Below, in pieces: positions 1 through 14,377 of a DNA stretch of 14,377 nucleotides. The translations under genes were made by a program, and so were the position numbers. Position 1 is the first letter of the stretch. Each line of letters opens with the position of its first letter. The stretch comes from a virus (lineage: Duplodnaviria; Heunggongvirae; Uroviricota; Caudoviricetes). The notes beneath the pieces were generated by a model that saw nothing but the letters and a program-made list of their open reading frames with translations, did not search any database and was not told the origin of the DNA. Location of the stretch: positions 1 through 14,377 of the IMG/VR virus record IMGVR_UViG_2675903352_000015; one strand, 5' to 3'.

Positions 1-750
1 AGCCGGTGACTCCGGATCAACGGCAATGCTGACCACCGTCTTTTCCTGTGGCGGGTTTTGCTGGTGGGCGTGAGGCAGCAGCGCAAGATTTTTTGTGCGC
101 TGCTTCAGTATGCTGGTGGCGGTCTGCTCTCCCGGTACGATGTCGCTTTCGCGGTACACCGAGCGGATTTTTTCCGCACGCAATCCCAGAGAACGACGTA
201 ATACTGCCTCCGGCAATACGTCCGCTACCTGATTGCAGACCGCCCACCAGGATAATTCAGCCAGCGATAACTCCCGCTCCTGTGTACCGTTTATTGCGTG
301 GCGGATGACGTCAATCATCCAGGATGTCAGGTTTTGTTGAGCAAGTTGCCCGAGTGATTCTGAAGTCTGGTCGCGTAACTGATTATCACAGTGCCAGCAC
401 AATACCATCGCGCCGGTACCGTAACGATGTATGACGGTTTCACTGTGGTGGTAGTCACCATGAGGCCACTGGCAGGATTTAACATGGCGTAACAGCCAGT
501 CAGACAATGCGCCAGCGCCGCCAGCAGCACGAATCACCCGCTCATCGCTGAAAAATGGCAGTAATGATTTATCTTCCGCGAGCGGCTGGCGCACGGCAGG
601 AACAGCTCCTGACGGCAGACCGCGCATGCTTTTCGGTTCCGGCTCCACCAGCACCCGGGGATTATGAAATACCTGCATGGATTCACGGCCCGGCTTAAGG
701 ACCACCAGCCCGAGTTCCGGTACCAGAACAGGTCGAAGTAATATCCGCAC
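1..750 (-). CDS. hypothetical protein, N-terminal part only (gene continues beyond the left edge)
   Basis: Minus-strand frame aligned to plus triplets 1,4,7... has no stop from position 825 down to position 1 (more than 270 codons). Candidate starts are GTG 750..748 (GGAGG 4 nt upstream, 1 nt after the stop of the upstream gene) or ATG 678..676. Translation contains a His/Cys-rich segment (CQWPHGDYHH...LCWHCD). Absent from the ORF track because it is edge-truncated. No family recognised. Confidence 0.4.
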   Translation of the reverse strand, partial: MRILLRPVLVPELGLVVLKPGRESMQVFHNPRVLVEPEPKSMRGLPSGAVPAVRQPLAEDKSLLPFFSDERVIRAAGGAGALSDWLLRHVKSCQWPHGDYHHSETVIHRYGTGAMVLCWHCDNQLRDQTSESLGQLAQQNLTSWMIDVIRHAINGTQERELSLAELSWWAVCNQVADVLPEAVLRRSLGLRAEKIRSVYRESDIVPGEQTATSILKQRTKNLALLPHAHQQNPPQEKTVVSIAVDPESPA

Positions 751-751
751 G

Positions 752-1030
752 TTACCTCCAGATACGTTGCTGGAATGTGCGGGAAGGACGCGGTGGGCGC
801 TCGGAGTAAGGGAGCCTTACAGAGATTATCCAGTGCAGGCGATCCAGACTGAGATCTTTCTGAACCTCATAGCCACGTCTGCGGTAGCTCTGAATTAGCC
901 ATTCAGCCTGTTCTTCTGTGCATGGAGGGTGCTGATACCAGCGAGTTTTAAATGCGTGCAAACGCCGCCCGTGCCTGCTGGCAAAGACGGCTGAATTATC
1001 AGAATTGTGTAACTTGGTATCGTGCGCCAT
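752..1030 (-). CDS. hypothetical small protein (92 aa from ATG 1030; ORF track extends it to a TTG at 1084)
   Basis: Open frame 752..1084 on minus strand; first ATG at 1030..1028; stop abuts the GGAGG/GTG start of the downstream edge gene, suggesting an operon. No family recognised. Confidence 0.35.
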   Translation of the reverse strand: MAHDTKLHNSDNSAVFASRHGRRLHAFKTRWYQHPPCTEEQAEWLIQSYRRRGYEVQKDLSLDRLHWIISVRLPYSERPPRPSRTFQQRIWR

Positions 1031-1098
1031 CGGTTGTCTCTGCTGGCGCAGCAGGTGCCAGTTGTTCAGGCTGGCGTGCGGCAATATTGTCTCTGATT

Positions 1099-1148
1099 TC
1101 TGTTGTCGTCAACAGACAGCGTGCTATCATCGAATAGTGTTCTATACT
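1099..1148 (+). promoter_or_regulatory. putative parDE promoter with palindromic operator
   Basis: Palindrome CTGTTG-tcgt-CAACAG at 1100..1115; candidate -10 hexamers TATCAT 1125..1130 and TATACT 1143..1148 upstream of the ParD start at 1166. ParD antitoxins typically autoregulate through such palindromes. Confidence 0.4.
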
Positions 1149-1165
1149 ACTCTGTGAGGTTTACC

Positions 1166-1423
1166 ATGCGTACAACCCAACAATTCAGCATTACATTAAC
1201 TAACGAGATGGCTGACATGGTGCGCGCCCGTGTGGCTTCCGGTGCCTATGCTTCAGAAAGTGAGGTCATTCGTGAAGGGCTTCGCGCACTGAATGAGCGC
1301 GATAAAGCAATCGAAGAGTGGTTAACGCATTCAGTCGCCCCCTCTCTTGATTCTATCCGCGAAAATCCAAGCAACGGACGCTCCATTTCACAGGTTCGCG
1401 CCGCGATTCGATCCGGAAAGTAA
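1166..1423 (+). CDS. parD: ParD-family antitoxin (ribbon-helix-helix)
   Basis: 85-aa product from ATG 1166 (GAGG 7 nt upstream); sequence ...MADMVRARVASGAYASESEVIREGLRALNERDKAIEEWL is typical of RHH ParD antitoxins; immediately followed by a ParE-like gene. The ORF-track start at 1103 is an unlikely N-terminal extension. Confidence 0.8.
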   Translation: MRTTQQFSITLTNEMADMVRARVASGAYASESEVIREGLRALNERDKAIEEWLTHSVAPSLDSIRENPSNGRSISQVRAAIRSGK

Positions 1424-1428
1424 TCTGC

Positions 1429-1740
1429 ATGACATATGAAGTCATCATTACTCCTGAGGCCGAACAACAAATAATCAACATGCACAGATATATAACTGAG
1501 AAAGCAGGGAACGTCATTGCTGACAATTATGCCAATGCACTTCTTGATTATCTTGATGGGTTTTCTACATTCCCGCATCGGGGCAATAAACGCGATGATA
1601 TTCGCCAGGGGATGCGGGTAACTCATTTCCGCCACAGAACGATTATTGCTTTTGCCGTTGATGACAATAAAGTTTTTATCGCAGGCGTATACCACGGTGG
1701 GCAAATCTATGAAACCGATTTTTTATCCAGTGCACCGTAA
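1429..1740 (+). CDS. parE: ParE/RelE-family toxin
   Basis: 103 aa; starts 5 nt after the parD stop; C-terminal part (THFRHRTIIAFAVDDNKVFIAGVYHGGQ) matches the ParE/RelE fold pattern; canonical antitoxin-then-toxin order. Confidence 0.8.
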   Translation: MTYEVIITPEAEQQIINMHRYITEKAGNVIADNYANALLDYLDGFSTFPHRGNKRDDIRQGMRVTHFRHRTIIAFAVDDNKVFIAGVYHGGQIYETDFLSSAP

Positions 1741-1780
1741 AACCCCCATCCTTCAGGGCGTGGCGGATATCAAACTTTGT

Positions 1781-2863
1781 TCATTTTCTCTGGCTGATCT
1801 TTACCGGATAACCATCCCGAAGATCAATTAAGTGCTCCGGTTCAGAAGCAAACCATGCATAAGATCCCCACGCCAATTCTGGTATTGCCTTTTTAAAAGG
1901 CAGAGCACTTCTGTCAATAAATGCCGTAAGGAATGCAAGATTTTTCTCGCTGAACCCAGCGTCAATAGCCAAATGAGTGAGAGTAACTTTTCGTTCCCTG
2001 TTTATAGGCCCATCTGTCGCAACTACCTCAGTGAAAACTACAAGCATATCCGAACCCGTTCGGTCCTCTCCCAAATCAATCAAAATAATATCTGGAAGTG
2101 CTTTTGAGGCATCAATATTCAGCCCCAATGCTTTTGCCAATACATCATCCTGAGCAACAACTTTATTCCCAGATTCAGACAACCAGAGCACAGTTGGATT
2201 CTTAAGAAAATTAGGAGCAAAAACTTCGATGACGGCCTTAGCTATTGTACTTGACGGGCCCGGAGCTAAAGTTCTCTTCTCTCCATTTGGGAAAGTGACG
2301 ACTACGGCATCAGCAGCAATCACTGCCCCTGATTTCAATAAACGCAATCTAGCAAGAGCGGCTTTGTTCAAATGATTTTCCTGCCAGGAACTTATTGCAC
2401 TCAGCAGCGAATCTCCTTCAAGCCCAGCATCAAAGAGTGCTGCAAAAGAGCGATTCAAACTGTAACGAGGATGAGAGGATGTGGTGGGTATACCTTTACG
2501 CTCAACAATTGCATTGCAAGGTATTAGGCCATTTTTTATAGTTTCATCACGTATTGGCTCACGCGTATTTTCCGCATACCATGCATCAGCAGGCCTTATC
2601 TTTTGTTTAGAGAAAGTCATCTTTACCCAACTTTCTCTGGACGCATCATCAGTAAGAGCAGCCTGTGAATCTCCCATACTTACAACCTGGCTGGGCCTTA
2701 TCCATCGCCCCAGCCCCTCAACCGCACCAGCATAAAACATGACAAAAATTGTTTTTGCAGCTATTTCCCGAATTAAATATCCACGATTCTCAGTCCCTTC
2801 AGGGAAAATTAATGGTAATCTTTCCCGGATAACATTCAATGGGGGAACAACAGGCAGATTCAT
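1781..2863 (-). CDS. putative type II restriction endonuclease (resembles BsuBI/PstI family, from memory)
   Basis: 360-aa ORF directly downstream of the methyltransferase on the same strand, with ATGA start/stop overlap at 2860..2863; AT-rich composition; size and context match REases paired with Eco57I/PstI-type methyltransferases. Family assignment is from recollection only. Confidence 0.6.
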   Translation of the reverse strand: MNLPVVPPLNVIRERLPLIFPEGTENRGYLIREIAAKTIFVMFYAGAVEGLGRWIRPSQVVSMGDSQAALTDDASRESWVKMTFSKQKIRPADAWYAENTREPIRDETIKNGLIPCNAIVERKGIPTTSSHPRYSLNRSFAALFDAGLEGDSLLSAISSWQENHLNKAALARLRLLKSGAVIAADAVVVTFPNGEKRTLAPGPSSTIAKAVIEVFAPNFLKNPTVLWLSESGNKVVAQDDVLAKALGLNIDASKALPDIILIDLGEDRTGSDMLVVFTEVVATDGPINRERKVTLTHLAIDAGFSEKNLAFLTAFIDRSALPFKKAIPELAWGSYAWFASEPEHLIDLRDGYPVKISQRK

Positions 2864-4692
2864 GCAATCATCACTCCATAGAAACCAGCGATAGTTCTCT
2901 CAATAATCCGTCTGTGGACGCCGGCATCAATTAACGATTGAATCTCCATCACCTGCTCCAGAGAAGGCAACGGGATTGAATTCAATTCATAGGCCGAAAC
3001 AGCAACACTTCCGCTTATACACCTGAACGCCCGATCGACAACATGCGAATTAAGTAGCATATCAATAACATCAGGGCGAACCGCAGAGAACAATCCGTTT
3101 GAATACACAATATTAATATGGTTTTCAACTACTACGCCACCAGTTTCATCTATAAATCCCTGAGGTAAAATCGCAGCTAAAATCCTTCTGTCCTGCTCCT
3201 TCGATGTTGTCCGCTGAACAAGCACACATTCAGATTTTGTCACAAGGAAACCCTGTTGTGGGGTTATATCGATATAGGGAACATGATTTTTTCTGTCTGC
3301 GCTAAAACGGAAACCAGCTGAAGTTATTGATTCCGCCCAGACTAATGGATAGCTATTTTTTCCTTTCGTCGTACGCAACTGCGACTTAAATCGATTCCAG
3401 ACTAACTGACCTGTAGAGACTGAGTATCCCAGATCAGCTAAACGCGTAGACATCTGTTTTAATACATTAAGAAAACAAGCATCATCTTTAACTCGTGGCA
3501 AAAGCCACGTTGCTCCACCTTTTTCTATATCAACATTACCTATTTTCTCAATTTTTGCTTTGTTCAACCCCTTAGGGACAAGTGAGGATACCTGGGCCCG
3601 AACTTTATGTTCTCCCGCCTTGAATGCTGTCAACATTGTTTCCTGGAGAACATCGTCAAAGACCCCATCCCTGTCAGCGACGAAATCAAGGGCATACGGA
3701 GTAGTTTTTTCGGTCAAAAGGGTTCGCAGCGCGGTGAAATACTGCCCACCAAGAAAAGAAGTTGGCGTAAGAAATGCAATAACTCCTGTTTTCTCTTTAA
3801 CCATGCGAACAGCTAAGTCGGTGAACAATCCATATAGATTTGCATGACCAAATAACGAACGAGAATATTTTTCTCTCGTTTTAATATCGAGAGTGACACG
3901 TCCGTAAGGCGGATTCCCTACCACAAGATCATAACCAGAAATTTTATCTTGCTGAAGCGCATCAGCAACAATAATTGTATCTTCAGGCAATCTACGTTTT
4001 ACCTTTACACATAGTGGCATTAGTACAGATTCGAGCAATACCAAACTCATCCAAGCCGCAAATGGATCGATTTCTATCCCCTTTAAACGACGACTGATTC
4101 TCCTCAACATCCATTCAGGGGAAGACCCCTTGTCTTTTTTTAACATTCGAATGGCTACTGGTGCCAAAAATGCACCGCCACCACACGCAGGATCAATAAC
4201 CGATGCATGAGAAAAATCAACACCAGACTTTTCAGCCAGGTCCAAGAGACGCGCTACCAAAGGTGGGGGGGTATAGTAAGCCCCCAATTCCGAACGGTAA
4301 GCGGATGGCAGCATTACCGTATAAATTGACCCAATCAGATATCCAGCGTCCTCCGCCGGAAATTGAGCAATAAGCTCACCTGTTCGTTCAGCGAGCTCGC
4401 GTGCATCACATGGAATGTCTTCTATGTAAACAGTGTGCGGTACTGCCCTCATTTTAATGCTGCTTTTTTGCTTTTTTGCAAGGGTATCCCAATATGCAGC
4501 TACGATGCTGAAGCAGTATGAGCGGGCATGCATCAACCTTGACTGCCCGGTTTTGTAATTGCCCGCATAACCTTTGGCCATGGCTTTACAAGTTTGATAT
4601 CTTTCCAGATTAGAAAACTCATTATCTGTAAAAAAATCAAAATGTTGCACATTCATAATGTAAAATCCTAATGTATCAAACATGCGGGCCAT
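2860..4692 (-). CDS. gamma-class N6-adenine DNA methyltransferase (Eco57I/PstI-like modification subunit)
   Basis: 610 aa; motif X GAYYTPP, motif I DPACGGGAFL (SAM binding), motif IV NPPYGRV in gamma-class order. Start choice is uncertain (ATG 4692 with weak SD; internal ATG at MNVQHF has an AGGA upstream). Confidence 0.85.
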   Translation of the reverse strand: MARMFDTLGFYIMNVQHFDFFTDNEFSNLERYQTCKAMAKGYAGNYKTGQSRLMHARSYCFSIVAAYWDTLAKKQKSSIKMRAVPHTVYIEDIPCDARELAERTGELIAQFPAEDAGYLIGSIYTVMLPSAYRSELGAYYTPPPLVARLLDLAEKSGVDFSHASVIDPACGGGAFLAPVAIRMLKKDKGSSPEWMLRRISRRLKGIEIDPFAAWMSLVLLESVLMPLCVKVKRRLPEDTIIVADALQQDKISGYDLVVGNPPYGRVTLDIKTREKYSRSLFGHANLYGLFTDLAVRMVKEKTGVIAFLTPTSFLGGQYFTALRTLLTEKTTPYALDFVADRDGVFDDVLQETMLTAFKAGEHKVRAQVSSLVPKGLNKAKIEKIGNVDIEKGGATWLLPRVKDDACFLNVLKQMSTRLADLGYSVSTGQLVWNRFKSQLRTTKGKNSYPLVWAESITSAGFRFSADRKNHVPYIDITPQQGFLVTKSECVLVQRTTSKEQDRRILAAILPQGFIDETGGVVVENHINIVYSNGLFSAVRPDVIDMLLNSHVVDRAFRCISGSVAVSAYELNSIPLPSLEQVMEIQSLIDAGVHRRIIERTIAGFYGVMIA

Positions 4693-4751
4693 AACATCTC
4701 ATGGTGGCGCATAGCAAACTGGCCCGAAGAATATCACGCACCAAGTCGATC

Positions 4752-4767
4752 TCATAACCCGTTATGA
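4752..4767. promoter_or_regulatory. 16-bp palindrome TCATAACCCGTTATGA upstream of the restriction-modification operon
   Basis: Perfect inverted repeat CATAAC-cc-GTTATG (4753..4766, extendable by one base each side), about 60-75 bp upstream of the methyltransferase start in a 214-bp AT-rich intergenic region; position fits an operator. Confidence 0.3.
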
Positions 4768-4906
4768 CAATAAATCTTTGTAGCTGAACTCACTTGGTGA
4801 TTTGTCAATCATTCCTGGCCTCCAGTTCGTCCTGAATCTCTTTATCGAGTTCACCGTATTTGTTAGTCCTCATCACTCACGACTTGACTTCCAGAAATAA
4901 CCTTGA

Positions 4907-5263
4907 TTATTCGGGGCTATATTTTGTCACCCTGCGTATCCGCGCTTTCGCATTACGCTCAATCTGGATTAGCTTTTCTATATTTTTTCGCCTTTCCCGC
5001 TCCTCCTGGCGCAAGAGCCTTACATCATCTGCCAGTCTGGTTTCTCTTTTCGCCACAGAGAGCATCCAGTCAAATGGCTCCACAACTGCACCGCAGATTT
5101 TACAGCGGACCTGACGCTCTTTTTCGTCAACCCGGACAGAAGCGTGATGGCAATATGGTCTTTCCGATGGCTCATAAAGAAAATTAACCTGATTACGAGG
5201 GTTATCCTCTTTTACCGGAAATAAAACAATATTGCTTAACTCATCTTCTGGTTTTATTTCCAT
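4907..5263 (-). CDS. hypothetical protein with putative zinc ribbon (C-H-H ... C-x2-C) and basic C-terminus
   Basis: 118 aa from ATG 5263..5261, preceded by AAGGAGAGGAGC on the minus strand. The ORF-track start (GTG 5320) directly abuts the upstream stop and lacks an SD. Motif YCHHASVRVDEKERQVRCKICG. No family recognised. Confidence 0.5.
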   Translation of the reverse strand: MEIKPEDELSNIVLFPVKEDNPRNQVNFLYEPSERPYCHHASVRVDEKERQVRCKICGAVVEPFDWMLSVAKRETRLADDVRLLRQEERERRKNIEKLIQIERNAKARIRRVTKYSPE

Positions 5264-5320
5264 GCTCCTCTCCTTTGATGCGAATGCCAGCGGTAATTGA
5301 AGCCTGATAGCTAATTTCAC

Positions 5321-5743
5321 TCACAGTACCGCCTCCTGAAAATCACCCTGATAGAAAGCCAGTACACGCTGCATAACTTCACTCTTCCGGCACTCGCGAC
5401 AGATTATGTTCTGATGTCTGTCGTAGCGGCGTATTTCTCCGTCTGGTAATGACCAGATAAGGTCCGGATCAACCGCAGATGGTTTCTTCAGCTTTGCCCT
5501 TGAGAGCTTTTTACGGGCATTTTGCCAGTCCTTACGCGCCTGTTCAGACGGGAATAACCCGTAACCAGAGTTGCATACATCGCCACTGGCAACCAGCTCT
5601 CTGGCCAGAACGCTCATCAGATATCTTGTTGCCCCAGTTTTAGCTTCCAGTTGTCGTAACGTCTCGCGCCCACTCTGGCGTACGAGTTCAACAACCTGCC
5701 CTTTAATTTTTTCCCGCTCTTCTTGTGTAAAAACTTTTGCCAC
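5321..5743 (-). CDS. hypothetical protein (possible winged-helix/HTH) in the position where a helicase loader would be expected
   Basis: 140 aa; GTG start 5743..5741 with AGGAGGG upstream; lies 40 bp downstream of the O-like gene; no Walker A motif, so not DnaC-like. Confidence 0.5.
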   Translation of the reverse strand: MAKVFTQEEREKIKGQVVELVRQSGRETLRQLEAKTGATRYLMSVLARELVASGDVCNSGYGLFPSEQARKDWQNARKKLSRAKLKKPSAVDPDLIWSLPDGEIRRYDRHQNIICRECRKSEVMQRVLAFYQGDFQEAVL

Positions 5744-5783
5744 AAGCCCTCCTGAAAATTACCTCATGACCAGAAATTAACAC

Positions 5784-6749
5784 TTACCCCCTGAAGCCCG
5801 GCGGAATTTCGTTATCCGGTTCAGAAATGTGATTCACGCAACGCTGTACAGGCGAACGCCCCAGACGAATAACCAGCTCATCCCATTTTTCGCGAAGCTT
5901 TGACGGGCTCATGACGTTTTTTACCCAGAATGGATCCCGCTGTACCCGACCAAACATTTCGCAAATTTGTCTGTGAGTTCTGCCATCCAGCATCCGCATT
6001 GTGCGCACATCATTGGCCCATGCAGTCCAGTTTGGTTCTTTCGGTCGCATGATTTCGCCATCATCGCTGGCAGCCTGCTCGTAAAGACTCACGATTCGCC
6101 CCCAGATCCACTGCGCACACGCCAAATCTTCCTGGCTGCCCCACTGGCGTTTTTTCGCACTGAACACAACAGCGTCAGGGTGTCGGGTTAAAAAATCCTG
6201 TTCAGCCGTCTGCCTGTCCGGTTGCGAAGATTCCGGACGAGAAGTGTTTTTATTCTCTGTAGTAATCTCTGTTGTATTCTCTGTAAGATCATCGGGCCAT
6301 TTTGACCCGATGACATTGGGTCGTTTTGAACCAATGGAGCGTGTCATTTTGGCTCCTTCCATCGTGTCATTTTGACCTGATGGAGCGGCGCATTTTGACA
6401 TGATGGATTCGCTCACTTTGCCACCATCTAAAAGCTCGCTCTCGTAATTAATCGTGTAAAAATTAGTCATATCACGCTTTGATTTGTTGAGCTTTTCACA
6501 ACGCAAAAGCCCCAGCGTTTTCAGACTTGCAAATGCGCGTTTTAACGTTGACTCTGACCAGAAAGGGAACTGTTCCAGCCATTGTTCTGTTGTGTTATAA
6601 ATCCAGCGAACACCATCACATTCCATGCCGGAACCGGTATCTCTCAACCAGTAATGCAGCTGCTGCAACACGATGGCTTCGTTCAGACCAATTTTCATCG
6701 CCAGCTGCGTGTTTATAACCAGCGGGCGTTCAGCAAAAAGGAGCTTCAT
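5784..6749 (-). CDS. phage replication initiation protein (lambda O / Rac YdaU-like replisome organiser)
   Basis: 321 aa; strong SD (GGGGGAGGGG) before ATG 6749; follows the Cro-like and YdaT-like genes in the rightward-operon position; an iteron array and AT-rich repeats lie inside the central linker of the gene, as in lambda O/ori. Confidence 0.65.
   Translation of the reverse strand: MKLLFAERPLVINTQLAMKIGLNEAIVLQQLHYWLRDTGSGMECDGVRWIYNTTEQWLEQFPFWSESTLKRAFASLKTLGLLRCEKLNKSKRDMTNFYTINYESELLDGGKVSESIMSKCAAPSGQNDTMEGAKMTRSIGSKRPNVIGSKWPDDLTENTTEITTENKNTSRPESSQPDRQTAEQDFLTRHPDAVVFSAKKRQWGSQEDLACAQWIWGRIVSLYEQAASDDGEIMRPKEPNWTAWANDVRTMRMLDGRTHRQICEMFGRVQRDPFWVKNVMSPSKLREKWDELVIRLGRSPVQRCVNHISEPDNEIPPGFRG
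6250..6430. repeat. putative replication origin: six 23-bp-spaced iterons plus three tandem 12-bp AT-rich repeats
   Basis: TTTTG cores at 6300, 6324, 6347, 6370, 6393 and (CTTTG) 6416, unit consensus about GTCATTTTGACCnGATGGAG; adjacent TATTCTCTGTAG-like 12-mers with TCTCTGT at 6254, 6266, 6278. Confidence 0.6.
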
Positions 6750-6770
6750 CCCCTCCCCCAGAACACGTTA

Positions 6771-7196
6771 TCAATGCGCCACCACGGCATTTCCCGCCGG
6801 ACCACCACGATTCATCTGATTGAAACCAGCAATTACCACCGCGACAAGTTCATCAGCGTCTCTCACCAGTCGTTCATGCGTATCCACCAGTTCCCGAAAA
6901 TAATCGGAACTGTGGCTGCGCATCCAGGCCACCAGCGGAGGTGGCATTGCCTTTTCGATCGCTGGTAACAAAGCCTGAATTTTTTTAACCGCATCAGGGG
7001 TGTCTTTCTCCACCCAGCGGAAAATTTTCTGAGTATTGCGAGCCAGGGCTTCCGGATGGCTGTCGTCATACAGTTCCGGGAATGTCATACCCAGCTCAAA
7101 ATAAGCCCGGGTTATTTCAGCTGCCGGAACTTTTTCACCGTCCGGACGCGCCCAGGCATTCATCGCCATGCGGATGTGTTCATGCTTGATTTTCAT
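6771..7196 (-). CDS. YdaT-like protein (Rac prophage family; role assignment from context)
   Basis: 141 aa; overlaps the end of the upstream Cro-like gene by 17 bp; SD GGGGA upstream; position and size match Rac ydaT. Confidence 0.5.
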   Translation of the reverse strand: MKIKHEHIRMAMNAWARPDGEKVPAAEITRAYFELGMTFPELYDDSHPEALARNTQKIFRWVEKDTPDAVKKIQALLPAIEKAMPPPLVAWMRSHSSDYFRELVDTHERLVRDADELVAVVIAGFNQMNRGGPAGNAVVAH

Positions 7197-7452
7197 GAAT
7201 CATCCCCGGTGTATTTGGTGTGTTAACTTTACATCCAACAGGTAAACCGTCGGTTGGGTTAGGATAAATATCAGGGCGAATTTCATGCGGGGTAACTTCC
7301 CACTTCATTAGCTGGCATAACGGAATTACCTGCTTTGGGGGAACACCAAAGCTAAACCATTGCCAAACAGTCTGTTGAGCAACTCCCATATAACGACCTA
7401 TTTCAGCTTGAGTGTGTTTCTGCCTAATTTTTTCGCGAGTGCTATCTAGCAT
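7180..7452 (-). CDS. Cro/YdaS-like HTH transcriptional regulator
   Basis: 90 aa; strong SD (GAGGAGGG) before ATG 7452; HTH segment TQAEIGRYMGVAQQTVWQW; divergent from the repressor gene across an operator-bearing intergenic region. Confidence 0.65.
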   Translation of the reverse strand: MLDSTREKIRQKHTQAEIGRYMGVAQQTVWQWFSFGVPPKQVIPLCQLMKWEVTPHEIRPDIYPNPTDGLPVGCKVNTPNTPGMIHENQA

Positions 7453-7481
7453 TTTGCCCTCCTCTAAAAAACTATAAGCAA

Positions 7482-7523
7482 ATCCTACAATAAAAAACTG
7501 TATGCGATCAACAGTTTTTTATT
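7482..7523 (-). promoter_or_regulatory. pR-like promoter with operator palindrome O1 (AAAAACTGT-N9-ACAGTTTTT)
   Basis: Perfect 13-bp inverted repeat AATAAAAAACTGT (7489..7501) / ACAGTTTTTTATT (7511..7523); on the minus strand TTGATC (-35, 7511..7506), 18-bp spacer, TAGGAT (-10, 7487..7482) upstream of the Cro-like gene. Confidence 0.5.
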
Positions 7524-7561
7524 GTGATGCTTTTAACAGTATTTGCCTGTAAAATTGGAAA

Positions 7562-7963
7562 ATGATGAACGCCCTAGAAGTATCTATGTACAGAATCAGC
7601 AAGCTTCTTCAGGAAACTGGATGGAGCCAGGCTGAGCTTGCCCGTAGAATTGGTGTGACACAGCAAACTGTTCAACAATGGGTCAGCGGTAAGGCAACAC
7701 CTAAAGCCTCAAGTTTGGATAAACTGGTTGAGGTTACAGGGCATCCATTGCATTGGTTTTTATTGCCTCCTGAAGAGAGGGAGCAAATTTTCACCCCTGA
7801 TACGATGAAAATTGGTCCTCGCCAACGCGAACTGCTCCAAGCTTTTAGTGCGTTTCCTGAGGAAGACCAGGAAAAAATGCTTCAAGAAATCAAAGACAAG
7901 AAAAAATCAATGGAAGAAACCATTGCCCGATGGTTAGCGGCACAAAAAAGCCGCCTGGCGTGA
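7562..7963 (+). CDS. CI/RacR-like prophage repressor (XRE-family HTH, no S24 peptidase domain)
   Basis: 133 aa; HTH SQAELARRIGVTQQTVQQWVSGKATP; sits between the two operator-bearing divergent promoters in the same arrangement as lambda cI; no C-terminal Ser/Lys autocleavage motif recognised. Confidence 0.7.
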   Translation: MMNALEVSMYRISKLLQETGWSQAELARRIGVTQQTVQQWVSGKATPKASSLDKLVEVTGHPLHWFLLPPEEREQIFTPDTMKIGPRQRELLQAFSAFPEEDQEKMLQEIKDKKKSMEETIARWLAAQKSRLA

Positions 7964-7990
7964 CCACTGAACAAGAAGAGGAGTTATGCC

Positions 7991-8068
7991 ATGAGTACAG
8001 CCCTTTCTCCGATAGTTTCAGAATTCGAAACAACCGAACAAGAAGACAGTTATAACTTCAAGCATTGA
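7991..8068 (+). CDS. possible small ORF (25 aa, acidic) downstream of the repressor
   Basis: ATG 7991 preceded by GAGGAG with a 7-nt spacer; MSTALSPIVSEFETTEQEDSYNFKH; lies between the repressor stop and the terminator. Could be non-coding. Confidence 0.25.
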   Translation: MSTALSPIVSEFETTEQEDSYNFKH

Positions 8069-8133
8069 AATTGCAAATATTGTGCATGCCCGACGACAAT
8101 TTACCTTCTCTATCTAAGCAGAACAATTTTCAT

Positions 8134-8159
8134 ACTCCCTCATTCGAGGGAGTTTTTTT
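8134..8159 (+). terminator. rho-independent terminator ending the repressor transcript
   Basis: 8-bp stem ACTCCCTC / GAGGGAGT with ATTC loop followed by TTTTTT (8154..8159); U-run present only for the plus-strand transcript. Confidence 0.65.
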
Positions 8160-8173
8160 GCCTAAACCAACAA

Positions 8174-8213
8174 TTAAAAACTGTTGACACAAAACAGTTT
8201 TTAATTGTAGATT
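8174..8213 (+). promoter_or_regulatory. pL-like promoter with operator palindrome O2
   Basis: TTGACA (8184..8189), 18-bp spacer, TAGATT (8208..8213); perfect 12-bp inverted repeat TTAAAAACTGTT (8174..8185) / AACAGTTTTTAA (8193..8204) overlapping the -35; same CTGT-N9-ACAG core as O1. Confidence 0.55.
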
Positions 8214-8224
8214 ATTTTCACCAA

Positions 8225-8237
8225 CCCCCCCCCCCCC
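8225..8237. repeat. homopolymeric C13 tract
   Basis: Thirteen consecutive C at 8225..8237, starting about 12 bp downstream of the pL-like -10 hexamer, in the transcript start/5' leader region. Confidence 0.9.
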
Positions 8238-8389
8238 ACAGAACGCCGGGCAATACTTCGAGTTACCCGGCAGTGGTCAGGGGTTAAGTAGCCAGCCCGA
8301 GGCGTAAGAACATGACGGCAGGGTTCAACTTTAACTATGCAGCAGGTTTTTGTTCCGCTACCCCGGCGTTAAGGGGAAATGAGGTCAAC

Positions 8390-8545
8390 ATGGATACTAT
8401 CGATCTTGGCAACAACGAATCTCTGGTGTGCGGCGTGTTCCCAAACCAGGACGGCACATTCACCGCGATGACGTATACCAAAAGCAAAATGTTTAAAACC
8501 GAAAATGGTGCCCGTCGCTGGCTGGAAAGAAACTCAGGTGAGTGA
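8390..8545 (+). CDS. small prophage protein (51 aa; resembles Rac/Qin YdaF/YdfA-type proteins from memory)
   Basis: ATG 8390 with GAGG 5 nt upstream; an in-frame upstream ATG at 8312 (GAGG 9 nt upstream) would give 77 aa, so the start is ambiguous. Confidence 0.5.
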   Translation: MDTIDLGNNESLVCGVFPNQDGTFTAMTYTKSKMFKTENGARRWLERNSGE

Positions 8546-8546
8546 T

Positions 8547-8675
8547 ATGGATTTCGACACAATCATGGAAAAGGCTTACGAAGAATACTTCGAAGGCCTT
8601 GCCGAAGGCGAAGAGGCTCTCAGCTTCAGTGAGTTTAAACAGGCGCTTTCCAGCCCGGCAAAATCTAACGGCTGA
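8547..8675 (+). CDS. small acidic protein (42 aa)
   Basis: ATG 8547 one nt after the preceding stop (coupled); MDFDTIMEKAYEEYFEGLAEGEEALSFSEFKQALSSPAKSNG. The ORF-track alternative (GTG 8542, other frame, Arg-rich low complexity) looks less protein-like. Confidence 0.4.
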   Translation: MDFDTIMEKAYEEYFEGLAEGEEALSFSEFKQALSSPAKSNG

Positions 8676-8704
8676 TAAGCGAAGCAGCACCGCGAGGAAT
8701 CAGT

Positions 8705-8923
8705 ATGCAGAAACGAGAACCCGTCATCATCGCGCCAGACTATACCGATGATGAACTTTATGAGTGGATGCACCAGAAAATTAAGGCAGCGCAGGACCTG
8801 AAATGGGCCAATGAAGCCATGGCTAAGCAGGCCGAAAATCTGTCTGCTCTGGAAAAAGATATTACCAATCTGGAAAAAGCAGCGGCATTAAGCATTGCCA
8901 GAATGATTACATACCCACGTTAA
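8705..8923 (+). CDS. hypothetical helical protein (72 aa)
   Basis: ATG 8705 with GAGGA 6 nt upstream; heptad-like, probably coiled-coil sequence; no family recognised. Confidence 0.5.
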   Translation: MQKREPVIIAPDYTDDELYEWMHQKIKAAQDLKWANEAMAKQAENLSALEKDITNLEKAAALSIARMITYPR

Positions 8924-8945
8924 TAGCTAACCAACGAGGCTAATA

Positions 8946-9353
8946 ATGGAATTTAAAGATTTACCAAAAGAAATCCAGACAATTGCTGCAACGACTCTCG
9001 GTGATAGTCTGGTGAAAATTGACCCGGCATACACCAAAAAAGAAACCATCGATAATATGGTTCGTAATGTGCGCAATGCTTTTTCTGGGCTATATGGTTC
9101 TGATAATCAAAAGCAGGAAAGCGATGTTAATAAACGGGTAATTTCTGTTTGCGTGAATGGCCATGTTCTTTCATCAATCAAAACAGAAACGGCGACAGTC
9201 TTCGATTGCCTTTGCATTGTACAGAGCCTTGTTGATGCCCTGTTTCGTTCAGTGAATTTAGAAAATGATGCAAATCTGCGAGGGCGCACAATAGCACATC
9301 CATATGCACATACTTTAGGCTCTGTGGATATCAAAGATCCCACAAATCTTTAA
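8946..9353 (+). CDS. hypothetical protein (135 aa) in an AT-rich accessory insert
   Basis: ATG 8946 with GAGG 8 nt upstream; visibly AT-richer than flanking prophage genes; no transmembrane segment or known motif recognised. Confidence 0.55.
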   Translation: MEFKDLPKEIQTIAATTLGDSLVKIDPAYTKKETIDNMVRNVRNAFSGLYGSDNQKQESDVNKRVISVCVNGHVLSSIKTETATVFDCLCIVQSLVDALFRSVNLENDANLRGRTIAHPYAHTLGSVDIKDPTNL

Positions 9354-9564
9354 TGAAATAGTTAACGCGAATTGTACTTGCTCTTTCAGTTGCTTTCAGA
9401 ATACGCGTTGAAACTGCTGGCGGTAATTTGGTATTCCATTTATTAAAATCATGCCCGGGAAAGTACTCTTCGAAAATACTTTTAACTGCAGACTCGCCTA
9501 TTGAAATGCTGCTTACCATGCGATTTTGATAAAGGCATTTAGCAATAAGAGTTGATTTTAACAT
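9331..9564 (-). CDS. hypothetical protein (77 aa), convergent with and overlapping the 3' end of the 135-aa gene
   Basis: ATG 9564..9562 preceded by AGGAGG (spacer GTGA) on the minus strand; AT-rich; 3' end overlaps the convergent gene by 23 bp. Confidence 0.45.
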   Translation of the reverse strand: MLKSTLIAKCLYQNRMVSSISIGESAVKSIFEEYFPGHDFNKWNTKLPPAVSTRILKATERASTIRVNYFIKDLWDL

Positions 9565-9957
9565 TCACCCTCCTGAGGGTTGGTAATTAAGGAGTTCTCC
9601 ACGGGTGAAATGGAGTGCGTGCGCCGGACACGGGTGAACATCCGGCACTGACAGTTTACTGAAAGGATATTTCTCTGAAAAGTCAGAGCATAACGCGAAA
9701 GCGCACGGCGAGGTTGCTGGTTCATAGATAGCCTGTCGTTAAATTTTCGTCGACCGTGCGCTTCCGGTTGTGGCACTCCGCGAAATGGCGCGGCGGTAAG
9801 TATGGCGGGGTTATTCCTTCCCCCGTTGAGGACACCGGGTTGTCAGGTTGACCATACGCTTAAGTGACAACCCCGCTGCAACGCCCTCTGTTATCAATTT
9901 TCTGTGACGTTTGGCGGCATCTGTTTGCCCATGAACTGATGTCCGCCCTTTTTAAAG

Positions 9958-10105
9958 TGAATTTTGTGATGCGGTGAATGCGGCTAAGCGCACGCGGAAC
10001 AGTTAAAGCTAAAAACAGTGTTATGGGTGGATTCTCTGTATCCGGCGTTAATTGTTAACTGGTTAACGTCACCTGGAGGCACCAGGCACCGCATCACAAA
10101 ATTCA
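9958..10105. repeat. 19-bp perfect inverted repeat pair flanking a 110-bp segment
   Basis: TGAATTTTGTGATGCGGTG at 9958..9976 and its exact reverse complement at 10087..10105; right arm ends 4 nt before the GAGGA SD of the ORF starting at 10123; internal segment contains GTTAAC-tg-GTTAAC. Confidence 0.85.
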
Positions 10106-10122
10106 TTGTTGAGGACGCGATA

Positions 10123-10311
10123 ATGGAAACGTTATTACCAAACGTTAATACGTCTGAAGGTTGTTTTGAAATTGGTGTCACTATCAGCAATCAGATATTT
10201 ACTGAAGATGCCATTAATAAAAGAAAACACGAACAGGAACTGCTAAATAAAATATGCATTGTTTCGATGCTGGCCCGTTTACGTCTGATGCAAACAGGAT
10301 GCAGGCAATGA
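10123..10311 (+). CDS. hypothetical small protein (62 aa) in the kil-region position
   Basis: ATG 10123 with GAGGA 7 nt upstream; the ORF-track GTG 10018 start would read through the inverted-repeat arm and is less likely. Confidence 0.4.
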   Translation: METLLPNVNTSEGCFEIGVTISNQIFTEDAINKRKHEQELLNKICIVSMLARLRLMQTGCRQ

Positions 10312-10406
10312 ATACGGCATTTGTACTCGTTCTGACTGTTTTTTTGTTTCTGGTGAACCGATTGATCTTGTTATTGACATACATGACTCAATGGAAGAAT
10401 GCATGA
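10308..10406 (+). CDS. possible hydrophobic micro-protein (32 aa, single predicted TM helix)
   Basis: ATG 10308 overlaps the upstream TGA (ATGA coupling); MNTAFVLVLTVFLFLVNRLILLLTYMTQWKNA. Below the length cut-off of the ORF track. Confidence 0.3.
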   Translation: MNTAFVLVLTVFLFLVNRLILLLTYMTQWKNA

Positions 10407-10498
10407 CTGCCGCGGCAGAGCAAAAAATTCCCGGGAACTGTTATCCTGTCGACAAAATTATTCGCATGAACAATAACGAAATCCCGGCAGGCCTTTAA
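10403..10498 (+). CDS. possible micro-ORF (31 aa; 35 aa if started at ATG 10391)
   Basis: ATG 10403 overlaps the preceding TGA (second consecutive ATGA coupling); MTAAAEQKIPGNCYPVDKIIRMNNNEIPAGL. Confidence 0.25.
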   Translation: MTAAAEQKIPGNCYPVDKIIRMNNNEIPAGL

Positions 10499-10590
10499 AA
10501 CAGCCCCATAATAAATATCCGGTTTTATTTTTATATGTCAGCAATGGCAGGGATTTGTCCACCCTTAAATCTGTAATGAGGTAAAACAAA

Positions 10591-13071
10591 ATGAGTAAAG
10601 TCTTTATTTGCGCCGCCATTCCGGACGAACAGGCAACAGCAGAAGGCGCCAAACCTGTGGCCACTGCCATTGAAGCAGGCGACGAACGCCGGGCAAGAGC
10701 CAAATTTAGCTGGTTATTTCTGGAACAATACCCGGAAGCTCAGGACTGTGCTTATAAATTTCTTGTCTGCGAGGATAAACCCGGCATGGCCCGCCCTGCT
10801 CTCGATTCCTGGGATTCCGAATATATGCAGGAAAACCGCTGGAATGAGGAGTCGGCTTCCTTTGTTCCGGTCGACCCTGAACCGGACGCAGAAATTGTTA
10901 ACTTTAATCAGTTATCTGACGACAAGCGGGCTGCTGTCCTTGTCAGGTTCGGTACACATGAAAACATCACCGTGGATATGGTCATCAATGCAAGCGGGCT
11001 TCTCGGCGATGACGAGATGACGACTTTTGATGGACACCTCGCTGAAGCAATTATCCGGACCAGAGAAATTAACGCCATGTATCCAGAGCGTCAGATTGAG
11101 TACATCAACGATGCCAGACGTGATTTAAAACCAACAGCCAAATGGCCCGACGTTCAGGCGTATTTTCTCGAACGTAAAAAACGCATGGAAAAGGAGCGCA
11201 AAGAAGGTGGCGCATATAATTCCGTCGTCGATCTTGCCCGCGCCAGAGTCAACCGGCAAGGCACTGAAAACTCTGCAGGAAAAACTGACTCCGTAACTGC
11301 TGTCATTCGTCGCGAATACAGGCAGACATGGAAAACACTGGATGAAGAACTGGCCTACGCTTTCTGGCCTGGTGATATTGATGCCGGAAACATTGACGGC
11401 AGCATCCATCGCTGGGCAAAAAATGAAGTTATCGACAAAGATCGCGAAGACTGGAAGCGTATTTCCGCATCAATGCGCAAACAACCTGATGCCGTTCGCT
11501 ACGACCGTCAGACTATTTTTGGCCTTGTCCGTGAGCGTCCGATCGACATTCACAAAGATCCCGTGGCGCTGAACAAATACATCACTGAATACCTGGCGAC
11601 AAAGGGCGTGTTTGAGGATGAAGAAACAGACCAGAGCACTGCTGATATTCTCCAGCCGTCAGCAGCACAAACTGATGCAGTGGAAACTGAAGTATCTGAT
11701 ACCCAAAAAAATGAAAGCGCGCTGGAAACTGAACCATCTGTAGAGCGTGAGGGGCCGTTCTACTTCCTCTTCACCGATAAGGATGGCGAAAAATATGGTC
11801 GTGCAAACAAACTTTCTGGTCTGAATAAGGCGCTGGCTGCAGGGGCTACTGAAATCACGAAAGAAGAATATTTTGCCCGTAAAAACGGCACGTACTCAGG
11901 TTCACAACAAAATACTGGTGCATCTGACACGACCGCACAACCAGAGCCGGTAAAAGTTACCGCTGACGAAGTAAACAAAATTATGCAGGCAGCCAATATC
12001 AGCCAGCCTGACGCCGATAAGTTGCTTGCTGCCTCTCGCGGAGAATTTGTTGCAGGGATTAGCGACCCGAATGATCCGAAATGGGTGAAGGGGATTGAAA
12101 CCCGCGATTCTGTAAACCAGAACCAGCAAGAATCGGAACAGAACGACCAGAAAGCGGAACAAAACAGTCAAAATGCGTTACAAAACGAGCCAGAAACGAA
12201 ACAACCTGAGGCAGTAGCGCAACAGGAACCGGAAAAAGTCTGCACCGCCTGCGGTCAGAGCGGTGGCGGCAACTGCCCTGATTGTGGCGCGGTGATGGGC
12301 GACGCAACATACCAGGAAACATTCGATGAAGAGAATCAGGTTGAAGTTCAGGAAAATGATCCGGAGGAAATGGAAGGCGCTGAACATCCACACAAGGAGA
12401 ATGCTGGCAGCGCTCAGGACCACGCCAGCGATAATGAAACTGGTGAGACGGCAGATCCCTTAATTGTGGTGAACGGTCATCACGTTATCACATCCACCAG
12501 CAGAGTGTGGTACCACCTGATGATCGACCTTGAAACAATGGGAACCAACACCAATGCGCCCATCGTGGTTATTGGTGCGGTTTTCTTCGACCCACAAACA
12601 GGGGAAATCGGGCCAGTATTTTATATCGTTATCAGTCTGACTGACGCAATGAATACAGGGGCTGCTCCTGACGGTGGAACCATCAAATGGTGGCTGAAGC
12701 AGTCCAGTGAAGCCAGAGCTGCCATTTTAACAGACCAGGTAAAACTGAAGGATGCCCTTTCGCGGTTTCGGGAGTTCATCAACGAATACTCAGATGAAAA
12801 ATTCGTTCAGGTATGGGGTAATGGTGCAACTTTCGATAACGCAATTTTGCGCACCTCATACGAACGTCTGGACATCCCCTGCCCGTGGCGCTACCACAAC
12901 GATCGCGATGTACGCACAATCGTTGAGCTGGGAAAAACAATCGACTTTGATGCTAGAACCGTTATTCCATTCGAAGGCGTTCGCCACAATGCACTGGATG
13001 ACGCCCGTCACCAGGCAAAATACGTTTCAGCAATCTGGCAAAAACTGATCCCGAATCCGGTTGATTTTTAA
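10591..13071 (+). CDS. RecE-like prophage exonuclease: RecE-type N-terminal/central region and Cys4 zinc ribbon fused to a DnaQ-like DEDDh 3'-5' exonuclease domain
   Basis: 826 aa; GAGGT 8 nt upstream. Segment DKLLAASRGEFVAGISDPNDPKWVKGI...CTACGQSGGGNCPDCGAVMGDATYQETFDEE closely matches Rac RecE as I recall it. C-terminus has DEDDh motifs: MIDLETMG (D646, E648), WGNGATFDNAIL (D749), HNALDDARH (H799, D803/D804). Confidence 0.8.
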   Translation: MSKVFICAAIPDEQATAEGAKPVATAIEAGDERRARAKFSWLFLEQYPEAQDCAYKFLVCEDKPGMARPALDSWDSEYMQENRWNEESASFVPVDPEPDAEIVNFNQLSDDKRAAVLVRFGTHENITVDMVINASGLLGDDEMTTFDGHLAEAIIRTREINAMYPERQIEYINDARRDLKPTAKWPDVQAYFLERKKRMEKERKEGGAYNSVVDLARARVNRQGTENSAGKTDSVTAVIRREYRQTWKTLDEELAYAFWPGDIDAGNIDGSIHRWAKNEVIDKDREDWKRISASMRKQPDAVRYDRQTIFGLVRERPIDIHKDPVALNKYITEYLATKGVFEDEETDQSTADILQPSAAQTDAVETEVSDTQKNESALETEPSVEREGPFYFLFTDKDGEKYGRANKLSGLNKALAAGATEITKEEYFARKNGTYSGSQQNTGASDTTAQPEPVKVTADEVNKIMQAANISQPDADKLLAASRGEFVAGISDPNDPKWVKGIETRDSVNQNQQESEQNDQKAEQNSQNALQNEPETKQPEAVAQQEPEKVCTACGQSGGGNCPDCGAVMGDATYQETFDEENQVEVQENDPEEMEGAEHPHKENAGSAQDHASDNETGETADPLIVVNGHHVITSTSRVWYHLMIDLETMGTNTNAPIVVIGAVFFDPQTGEIGPVFYIVISLTDAMNTGAAPDGGTIKWWLKQSSEARAAILTDQVKLKDALSRFREFINEYSDEKFVQVWGNGATFDNAILRTSYERLDIPCPWRYHNDRDVRTIVELGKTIDFDARTVIPFEGVRHNALDDARHQAKYVSAIWQKLIPNPVDF

Positions 13072-13137
13072 TGTTCAACCCTGATCGCCGTCTCCGAATT
13101 ATATTGGCGGCGGTCATGCTGTAAGGCACGTGACCAC

Positions 13138-13389
13138 ATGTACGAATTAACTCTATCGCCAGCAGAGATTCAAGAGATCACGAAATACGAGCGATACACA
13201 AAACAGCAACACCAGTTAAGGCTGCACGGTATCCCATTTGTAATCGGTCCTAAAAACGAACCAATAGTTCTTCGCAGGGATATTCCACACGGACTGACTA
13301 CGATGCCAAAAGCACCTGAACTAGTTTCCGCTGAACCCGATTTTGAGGCGCTGAACAATGGGAAGACCAAGAAAAAACAAAAAAGATAA
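13138..13389 (+). CDS. xis: excisionase (lambda Xis-like)
   Basis: 83 aa; N-terminus MYELTL and lysine-rich C-terminus NNGKTKKKQKR resemble lambda Xis (MYLTL...NGKKAKS) from memory; overlaps the integrase start by 32 bp as in lambda. Confidence 0.55.
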   Translation: MYELTLSPAEIQEITKYERYTKQQHQLRLHGIPFVIGPKNEPIVLRRDIPHGLTTMPKAPELVSAEPDFEALNNGKTKKKQKR

Positions 13390-14377
13390 TGCACTACCAC
13401 CGCGTGTTAGATCGAATGGTTACAGTTACGTGTGGAAACCCGAAGGAAGCACAAGAACTATAGGGCTCGGAAGAGTACGGGAAACCAGCGTAGCTAAAGT
13501 CTGGCAAAATTATGAACTGGAAAAAGCAAAACTCCACAACATAATGACCGTCGCTAAATTATGGCACATGTTTATGGACTCCCCTGCATTTACAGAACTG
13601 GCACCCCGAACCCAAAAAGATTATCGACAACATCAGAGGGCGTTGCTGGCGGTATTCGGTAAAGTGCTTGCTGATAATGTAAAAATTGAGCAAGTAAGAA
13701 TTTTCATGGATAAGCGGGGACTTGAGAGCAAGACCCAGGCAAACCATGAGCTGGCAAGCCTGAGTCGCGTATACGGATGGGGATATGAGCGTGGGTATGT
13801 GAAAAATAATCCATGCAAAGGCGTCAGAAAATTCACGCTTAAAGCCCGCACTGTTTACATAACCGATGAACAGTATGCGGCGATATACGCGGAAGCAATT
13901 CCACAGTTACGCATTGCAATGGAGATTTCCTATCTTTGTGCGGCAAGGCTCGGTGATGTTCTCGAGCTGAAATGGCAGGATATTATGGATAAAGGGATCT
14001 ACATTGAGCAAAACAAAACAGGCACCAAACAAATCAAGGAATGGTCTCCGCGATTACGTACGGCGATCCAGTTAGCCCGAAATGTATCTTCCGGCATATG
14101 CGGGTATGTGATCAGCACAACCAAAGGCGGGAAAGTCATCGCTAAAACGCTGAACAACTGGTGGAATCAGGCTAAACGCGCAGCCGAGCAAAAAGCAGGC
14201 GTTCCGTTCGGATGTAATTTTCATGACATAAAAGCCAAAGGGATTTCAGATTATGAAGGCAGCAGCCGCGACAAACAAATTTTCAGTGGGCATAAAACAG
14301 AAAACCAGGTGTTGATTTATGATCGCAAAACAAAAATCACCCCAACACTGGATTTGCCGCTTGTGGTCAGTAAGTAG
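13358..14377 (+). CDS. int: tyrosine integrase, lambda Int family
   Basis: 339 aa; N-terminal MGRPRK...LPP...NGY like lambda Int; box I Arg (AARLGDVLELKW); box II FHDIK...SGHK...LIYDRK with candidate catalytic Tyr; stop codon TAG is the last three bases of the window. Confidence 0.9.
   Translation: MGRPRKNKKDNALPPRVRSNGYSYVWKPEGSTRTIGLGRVRETSVAKVWQNYELEKAKLHNIMTVAKLWHMFMDSPAFTELAPRTQKDYRQHQRALLAVFGKVLADNVKIEQVRIFMDKRGLESKTQANHELASLSRVYGWGYERGYVKNNPCKGVRKFTLKARTVYITDEQYAAIYAEAIPQLRIAMEISYLCAARLGDVLELKWQDIMDKGIYIEQNKTGTKQIKEWSPRLRTAIQLARNVSSGICGYVISTTKGGKVIAKTLNNWWNQAKRAAEQKAGVPFGCNFHDIKAKGISDYEGSSRDKQIFSGHKTENQVLIYDRKTKITPTLDLPLVVSK

Follow-up and report, generated by a model that had tools for sequence, protein, structure and literature searches.

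A DnaT-like tail on the O-type initiator of a lambdoid prophage replication module without a helicase loader gene

Introduction

In phage lambda the origin of replication lies inside the initiator gene O, according to the lambda annotation; the module also contains P, and the gene directly after P is ren. In Rac-type phages the order is ydaU, ydaV (DnaC-like), ydaW (DUF1627) and lygF. The replication module of phage LLS, a phage that has been grown and studied experimentally, holds an O homologue only, and such O-only modules were reported in 34 of 314 lambdoid phages of Enterobacterales (PMC12315714), so that the loader-less layout is a known, natural class; the same 2025 study termed O-only replication 'not yet understood'. 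Here we analyse a locus of this kind in a 14,377-nucleotide (nt) stretch of viral DNA (IMG/VR record IMGVR_UViG_2675903352_000015, positions 1 to 14,377; hereafter the window), whose early region is that of a reversed lambdoid (Rac/Qin-like) prophage of Escherichia coli. Our subjects are its O-like replication initiator and the two small genes that follow it, called gene A and gene B below.

An earlier note on this DNA, made from the sequence alone, had described an O-like gene followed by a 140-amino-acid (aa) and a 118-aa gene standing where a helicase loader gene would be expected. It had offered three roles for the pair: helicase recruitment, regulation, or the leading genes of an adjacent defence cargo. 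The layout it gave was borne out on the minus strand in coordinates, lengths, motifs and ribosome-binding site, and its roles are weighed below. In our view the locus probably represents a naturally occurring O-only lambdoid module; genes A and B would be the first two accessory genes of a nin-type early-right operon, and helicase loading, as we infer, would be coupled through the C-terminal tail of the initiator. Genes A and B are members of catalogued families that are frequent in E. coli prophages, and the loader-less layout is already a reported class. The genes and the layout being of known kinds, the part worth following up is the DnaT-like tail of the initiator.

Results

The module carries no helicase loader gene

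The 14.4-kb window, which reaches from int to the nin region, contains neither a helicase gene nor a loader gene; the earlier note had already remarked on the missing loader. Neither protein downstream of O is an ATPase. A Walker A motif, strict or loose, is absent from O, A and B. Genes A and B match neither the IstB/AAA profiles of DnaC-like loaders (PF01695, phrog_50) nor those of P-like loaders (PF06992, phrog_109). The positive controls were recognized, DnaC-like proteins by PF01695 (E 7e-19) and phrog_50 (E 3.6e-82), and the P-like protein of a relative by PF06992 (E 1.3e-15). Likewise, tblastn of two phage DnaC-like loaders and lambda P against the whole window detected no remnant (best E 0.058, for lambda P), and the 40 nt that separate O from gene A leave no space for a decayed loader gene.

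A loader-less O is also found in the complete phage HannyBb, which has the same O (93% identity) and the same gene A (89%) and contains no loader, no helicase and no gene B. The loader-less junction between O and gene A also occurs in the phage records mEp460, PhiR42_1 and vB_EcoS-813R8. Other relatives do carry a loader. E. coli KFu019 has an O of the same type and length (321 aa), followed by a DnaC-like ATPase, the DUF977 gene (the family of gene A), two more genes and gene B. The left part of the window has its closest relative in E. coli FDAARGOS_943, which shares the restriction-modification (RM) and ParDE cargo at 97% identity; downstream of O, that strain has in turn a frameshifted DnaC-like gene, DUF977, gene B and the methyltransferase (M) and endonuclease (R) genes. 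The frameshift is consistent with a phage loader being dispensable in such modules.

A survey of viral loci anchored on DUF977 gives a similar picture. Among the 69 loci with enough upstream sequence, an O bearing the DnaT-like tail described below stands directly before DUF977 in 44 and is followed by a DnaC-like gene in 18, and a tail-less O is followed by a lambda P-like gene (PF06992, phrog_109) in five. The loader-less form is thus the majority among the surveyed loci, which are related prophages whose counts are not independent events. On these comparisons, modules that are otherwise nearly identical can carry or lack a DnaC-like loader gene inserted between O and gene A. Phage LLS differs from the window in what follows O, which is a methyltransferase gene instead of DUF977; its O ends in ...DTKIPEGFRG, a variant of the tail of the window O. 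The word DnaT does not occur in the LLS paper (PMC12315714).

A near copy of the DnaT tail at the end of the initiator

The O-like protein combines a replisome-organiser N-terminal half, a lambda O-type C-terminal domain (residues 147-294 against lambda O 135-270, 35% identity, E 6e-28) and a DnaT-like tail. Its reading frame is intact. A repeat search found five iterons in the gene, copies of a palindromic unit of about 23 bp (CATCGGGCCATTTTGACCCGATG) spaced at 23-24 bp, with a short AT-rich repeat beside them at 6248-6285, and the origin accordingly looks intact as judged from these elements. The layout matches that of the lambda origin. The window thus shares with the lambda O-P module both the iterons within the initiator gene and the homologous C-terminal domain of the initiator. 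Lambda, however, has P whereas the window has no P-like gene, and the final ~27 residues of the two initiators differ, lambda O ending in ...TNTDWIYGVDL and the window O in the DnaT-like tail.

Residues 301-321 of the window O (VQRCVNHISEPDNEIPPGFRG) align end to end with residues 159-179 of E. coli DnaT and are a near copy of its C-terminal tail, including the motif ...VS-x-PD-x-x-IPPGFRG. In the NCBIfam DnaT equivalog the match covers O residues 302-321 on profile positions 160-179 of 179, and the DnaT chains 6aep, 2ru8 and 9zbt of the PDB also align end to end with the tail. The resemblance goes no further: the three-helix DNA-binding domain of DnaT (PF17948) has no match in the window O at E <=0.1, and the O protein scores 17.5 bits against the NCBIfam DnaT cut-off of 201. 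It is therefore not a DnaT family member and has the tail only. DnaT (primosomal protein I) has in addition its own three-helix and N-terminal domains, and it is a restart protein whereas the window O is an origin-binding initiator. Some annotators call tail-bearing initiators 'primosomal protein I', a label that stems from the DnaT-like tail.

The tail is invariant across three N-terminal types of O whose remaining sequence is only 25-28% identical, and it was met in 46 phage records, with Gifsy-1, SPN1S and Rac YdaU among them. The DnaT-like tail of the window O recurs as LLRQVNTVSLPDSAIPPGFRG at the end of both the K-12 and the Rac-type YdaU. Rac also resembles the window in having a DUF977 gene further downstream. 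It differs in the N-terminal domain of YdaU, which is DUF1376, and in the DnaC-like ATPase YdaV and the DUF1627 protein YdaW, which are encoded between initiator and DUF977 in Rac and are both missing from the window.

The gene next to the tailed O was recorded in 59 tail-anchored loci, from a pattern scan that misses the variants IPEGFRG and VPPGFRG: it is DUF977 in 27, DnaC-like in 27, another non-loader gene in five and P-like in none. The tail thus shows no correlation with the absence of a loader, as tailed O genes occur both with and without DnaC-like genes; its association is with the type of loader, which is never P-like. Five O variants have the N-terminal domain of a tailed type without the tail. 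They end in ALDCxDWRDD, and each is followed by a P-like loader; the one that was checked contains the full DnaT DNA-binding domain (PF17948, E 2e-18). This distribution suggests that the C-terminal module and the loader type may have been exchanged together. The tail-less variants, with a whole DnaT DNA-binding domain and a P-like protein, resemble DopC and DopE, DopC being a domesticated O-like protein with the DnaT C-terminal domain that is paired with DopE (PMC5509034).

Gene A as a Ren/LygF homologue

Gene A matches PF06163 (DUF977) with 107.9 bits against a cut-off of 22.1 (E 5.5e-31), residues 1-136 aligning with positions 1-134 of the 134-position profile. It falls in phrog_142, 'Ren-like exclusion protein' (E 4.8e-47), to which lambda Ren also belongs (E 1.6e-41). 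The two proteins align at both ends, and pairwise BLASTP gives E 2e-6 on a C-terminal motif common to them, N-x-(I/V)-x-(R/K)-E-C-R-x-S-x-x-M-x-R-V-L-x-x-Y. A full-length Rac-type phage, furthermore, has a LygF protein with 88% identity to gene A. The positions are comparable as well: gene A lies directly after O here and after the loader in relatives, as ren does after P in lambda. By these profile and pairwise matches gene A is a Ren/LygF (DUF977) homologue, so that it has the confident homology to a known NinR-region protein that the earlier note had itself set against its proposal. Gene A differs from lambda Ren in being 44 residues longer, its conserved ends being separated by a basic linker and a beta region of low confidence, and in scoring above the Pfam DUF977 threshold, which Ren itself does not reach.

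In the protein, a basic linker joins the N-terminal winged helix to the C-terminal motif. The winged helix, suspected by the earlier note, is confident in the AlphaFold2 (AF2) model, where the fold takes in residues ~7 to 82 and residues 11-70 have a block-mean predicted local distance difference test (pLDDT) value of >=90. The best Foldseek matches in the PDB are winged helices of the IclR, MarR, GntR and AraR kinds, with high probability scores and E values of only 0.1-0.3; these matches are consistent with a winged helix and fall short of proof. The C-terminal half of the model is poorly defined. Only near-identical sequences were found among the best 120 homologues, so the alignment is shallow and this half of the model is of low confidence. 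The 'Cys pair' reported by the earlier note, CRECRK, is present at residues 115-120 but not conserved as a pair: when aligned with lambda Ren, C118 in the ECR motif is invariant and C115 stands opposite a Phe, so CRECRK is not a conserved metal site.

Ren confers resistance to Rex (rexAB) exclusion. Gene A would most likely encode a Ren-like small winged-helix accessory that shields the infecting or induced phage from host or prophage exclusion, and would not be a replication factor.

The naming of these genes is inconsistent, as 'YdaW family' serves in some phage records as a label for DUF977 or DUF1627 genes, while the Rac-type DUF977 gene is lygF. The K-12 YdaW is a truncated DUF1627 protein, and DUF1627 proteins show a weak Ren-like winged-helix match (phrog_142, E 1e-6). 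Blocking of the retron-Sen2 toxin by ydaW, as seen in a screen, was considered as a function for gene A and ruled out: K-12 YdaW is DUF1627 (E 3.6e-34), and since the DUF977 gene of the Rac-type record is lygF, not ydaW, the retron result is inapplicable to gene A and was not used.

Gene B belongs to a large zinc-ribbon family

Gene B matches phrog_1621, a family of unknown function (E 1.8e-54), and its homologues are spread across Enterobacterales. A profile search yielded 1661 representatives at 50% identity. All 30 remote homologues tested fall in three PHROGs of unknown function. Gene B thus represents a very large and entirely uncharacterised phage family. The zinc-ribbon motif described by the earlier note is real and conserved as CxH...CxxC, with C38, H39, H40, C54 and C57 present. 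C38, H40, C54 and C57 are invariant in 30 homologues, as is a helix motif (ERNAKxRIR) that includes the invariant NIEKLIQIERNAKARIRR on a long basic helix; three Cys are still invariant in remote homologues, where the helix motif is also conserved. We regard CxH...CxxC as a predicted zinc-binding site. The basic C-terminus was likewise confirmed, the last 39 residues having an isoelectric point of 10.9. The N-terminus is acidic and disordered, with a conserved NV(V/I)xFP, and in the AF2 model this disordered stretch is followed by a zinc-ribbon hairpin (strands 43-46 and 51-54) and a single helix (63-115). A fold search of the PDB with this model returned nothing significant, the best match being a generic similarity to the TFIIB zinc ribbon (E 0.19), and a profile search of the PDB gave only a chance match to a coiled coil (E 3.4).

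The strong ribosome-binding site that had been noted before gene B, AGGAGAGGAG, lies one base from its ATG. An alternative reading of gene B starts at the GTG at 5320 and has 137 aa; the 118-aa start is supported because the phrog_1621 profile begins at residue 20 of this longer reading. The spacer between genes A and B that includes the ribosome-binding site (5244-5294, minus strand) corresponds to the 3' end of the 154-aa gene that precedes gene B in KFu019 (88% over 17 aa). Judged from this match, the spacer looks like a recombination or deletion scar from which a DUF4406 gene and the 154-aa gene were removed.

In 14 loci outside Escherichia (from Kluyvera, Erwinia, Pantoea, Yersinia, Photorhabdus, Phytobacter and others) gene B adjoins neither DUF977 nor O. 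It follows NinG in eight and stands directly before the antiterminator gene Q in eleven, and the Q genes beside it belong to three different families. It is therefore a mobile nin-region gene, and these neighbours hint that it may serve the early-to-late switch and not replication. Its product would most likely be a small zinc-ribbon adaptor, oligomeric and with a host protein or nucleic acid as its binding partner in early development. Copies of the E. coli prophage gene B region that are 93-94% identical were also met in a scaffold of a Collinsella metagenome-assembled genome and in an Ursidibacter contig, most likely through assembly or binning contamination.

Discussion

Based on these comparisons, we propose that the initiator would bind the iterons inside its own gene and load the host DnaB via the host DnaC, the coupling being made by the initiator C-terminus, whose last 21 residues copy the DnaT tail. 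The tail would plug the origin complex into whatever the DnaT tail contacts in the helicase-loading pathway of the host and would thus, as we infer, recruit host DnaB-DnaC. Such a tail would adapt the initiator to a DnaC-type pathway irrespective of whether DnaC is encoded by host or phage, and a phage loader would thereby become optional. The partner specificity observed here, with tailed initiators accompanied by a DnaC-type loader or none and tail-less ones by a P-type loader, fits this reading. We put forward only tentatively the narrower proposal that the C-terminal 13-21 residues (...SEPDxEIPPGFRG) mimic the DnaT tail and couple the origin to DnaB-DnaC loading, either directly or via PriA. 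If true, tail mimicry would explain the loader-free replication of O-only lambdoid phages and would give a function to the conserved C-terminal tail of DnaT in replication restart. Together with the strict pairing (DnaC-type or none, never P-type), it constitutes a concrete and testable hypothesis for O-only phages.

Several points weigh against this proposal. In the literature consulted, no experiment or structure assigns a partner to the DnaT C-terminal tail, and a 2026 preprimosome paper places the C-terminal domain of DnaT on PriA and proposes its N-terminal domain as the recruiter of DnaB/DnaC. The tail might therefore contact PriA, or aid oligomerisation or the binding of single-stranded DNA (ssDNA), instead. 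The tail alone also fails to explain why a loader is dispensable, since it is found with phage DnaC-like loaders as well, and its association with loader type could stem in part from shared ancestry of the modules. The late region of the prophage lies outside the window, so the absence of a loader holds for the window only. As to the downstream genes, the role given to gene A is a low-confidence assignment drawn solely from homology and position, a literature search on Ren having found no mechanism, and that given to gene B is a guess read off its architecture.

Since the 2026 structures place the DnaT C-terminal domain on PriA, a PriA-dependent route is a live alternative. Here the tail would recruit the PriA-PriB primosome, or aid oligomerisation or ssDNA binding of O, and loading would be a hijacked restart reaction. 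In those structures the DnaT C-terminal domain docks on PriA through a hydrophobic interface and forms filaments on ssDNA. Removal of DnaT residues 154-179 weakens cooperative ssDNA binding (PMC4132743), and a whole DnaT DNA-binding domain is present in some O variants. The window O, however, has no three-helix domain, and a bare tail may not reproduce contacts made at the level of a domain; the lack of an assigned partner for the tail itself counts against this route too, and we judge it unlikely on balance. A different possibility is that the prophage is replication-defective, a DnaC-like loader having been deleted recently and genes A and B merely left beside O. The DnaC-like gene after a same-type, same-length O in KFu019, the decaying loader in the relative that shares the RM cargo, and the roughly 1/4 to 1/2 of tailed O genes that precede a DnaC-like gene would all agree with such a loss. 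The clean junction of O with gene A, however, retains no loader remnant and recurs in HannyBb, mEp460, PhiR42_1 and vB_EcoS-813R8, the loader-less form is the commonest among the surveyed loci, and both iterons and O frame are intact, all of which makes a recent loss improbable.

The two remaining explanations assign new roles to genes A and B. That they form a non-canonical helicase-recruitment pair replacing P or DnaC, as the earlier note had suggested, could draw on their position directly after O and on their probable co-transcription, a scan of 4500-5900 for promoters and terminators having found nothing on the coding strand. It could also draw on the predicted DNA-binding-type winged helix of gene A and on the zinc ribbon of gene B, given that some known loaders bind the helicase through a zinc-binding module, as is stated for DnaI of Bacillus subtilis (PMC1636449). 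Nevertheless, in relatives with a DnaC-like gene it is inserted after O and ahead of gene A, and genes A and B are both retained behind it, so they do not stand in place of a loader. HannyBb manages with the same O and gene A and neither loader nor gene B, and LLS with O alone before its methyltransferase gene. Lambda, for its part, has ren besides P. In viral contigs, gene B occurs within 1.5 kb downstream of DUF977 in 15 of 43 loader-less and 6 of 14 DnaC-positive loci (Fisher p=0.75), and in other genera it lies next to Q. In these data the occurrence of either gene shows no link with that of a loader, and comparative evidence of this kind already largely refutes a recruitment pair, which we consider very unlikely. 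The other suggestion of the earlier note, that genes A and B lead the defence cargo (type II RM plus ParDE), for example as RM controller or accessory genes, has in its favour that gene B shares its strand with the methyltransferase gene, with 214 nt between the end of gene B and the methyltransferase start downstream of it, and that a winged helix would in principle suit a C-protein-like controller. PADLOC, however, matches neither gene, M and R alone give full-length matches to the type II model, so that the RM pair is complete without them, and both genes are widespread without RM. Moreover, most relatives cease to resemble the window at about 4921, where gene B ends, and continue with ordinary nin genes in place of RM. 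We regard this role as extremely unlikely.

Locus layout and neighbouring features

The features of the window are listed in Table 1. The prophages of relatives continue beyond gene B through DUF968, RusA, Q, lysis and structural genes. Because these relatives have ordinary nin genes past gene B, the RM and ParDE genes of the window are morons inserted in the nin region, at a point between gene B and the DUF968-RusA-Q genes.

Table 1. Features of the 14,377-nt window.
Feature	Position	Strand	Remarks
ParD/ParE pair	1103-1740	+	
BsuBI/PstI-type endonuclease (R)	1781-2863	-	
Type II methyltransferase (M)	2860-4692	-	Eco57I/N6-type
Gene B, 118 aa	4907-5263	-	ATG start; phrog_1621
Shine-Dalgarno-like AGGAGAGGAG	5265-5274	-	One base before gene B ATG; read from sequence
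Gene A, 140 aa	5321-5743	-	GTG start; Shine-Dalgarno CAGGAGG; PF06163 (DUF977), phrog_142
O-like replication initiator, 321 aa	5784-6749	-	phrog_391 'replication initiation O-like', E 1.3e-96
Codons of last 21 O residues (VQRCVNHISEPDNEIPPGFRG)	5787-5849	-	DnaT-like tail
Origin iterons	6290-6405		Within O gene
cII/YdaT-like gene	6771-7196	-	
cro-like gene		-	
cI-like repressor		+	
826-aa exonuclease	10591-13071	+	
xis		+	
int	13358-14377	+	

Parts of the 2.1-kb stretch from O to gene B are matched in 4293 of 5426 complete E. coli genomes, and the whole RM/ParDE arrangement is found over >=80% of its length in only two of the 5426. The Pfam match of the 826-aa exonuclease, to the Rv2179c-like 3'-5' exoribonuclease domain (E 1.7e-69), is confined to its last ~180 residues. 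An acidic, Gln-rich low-complexity stretch lies in the N-terminal 640 residues, for which Pfam has no match.

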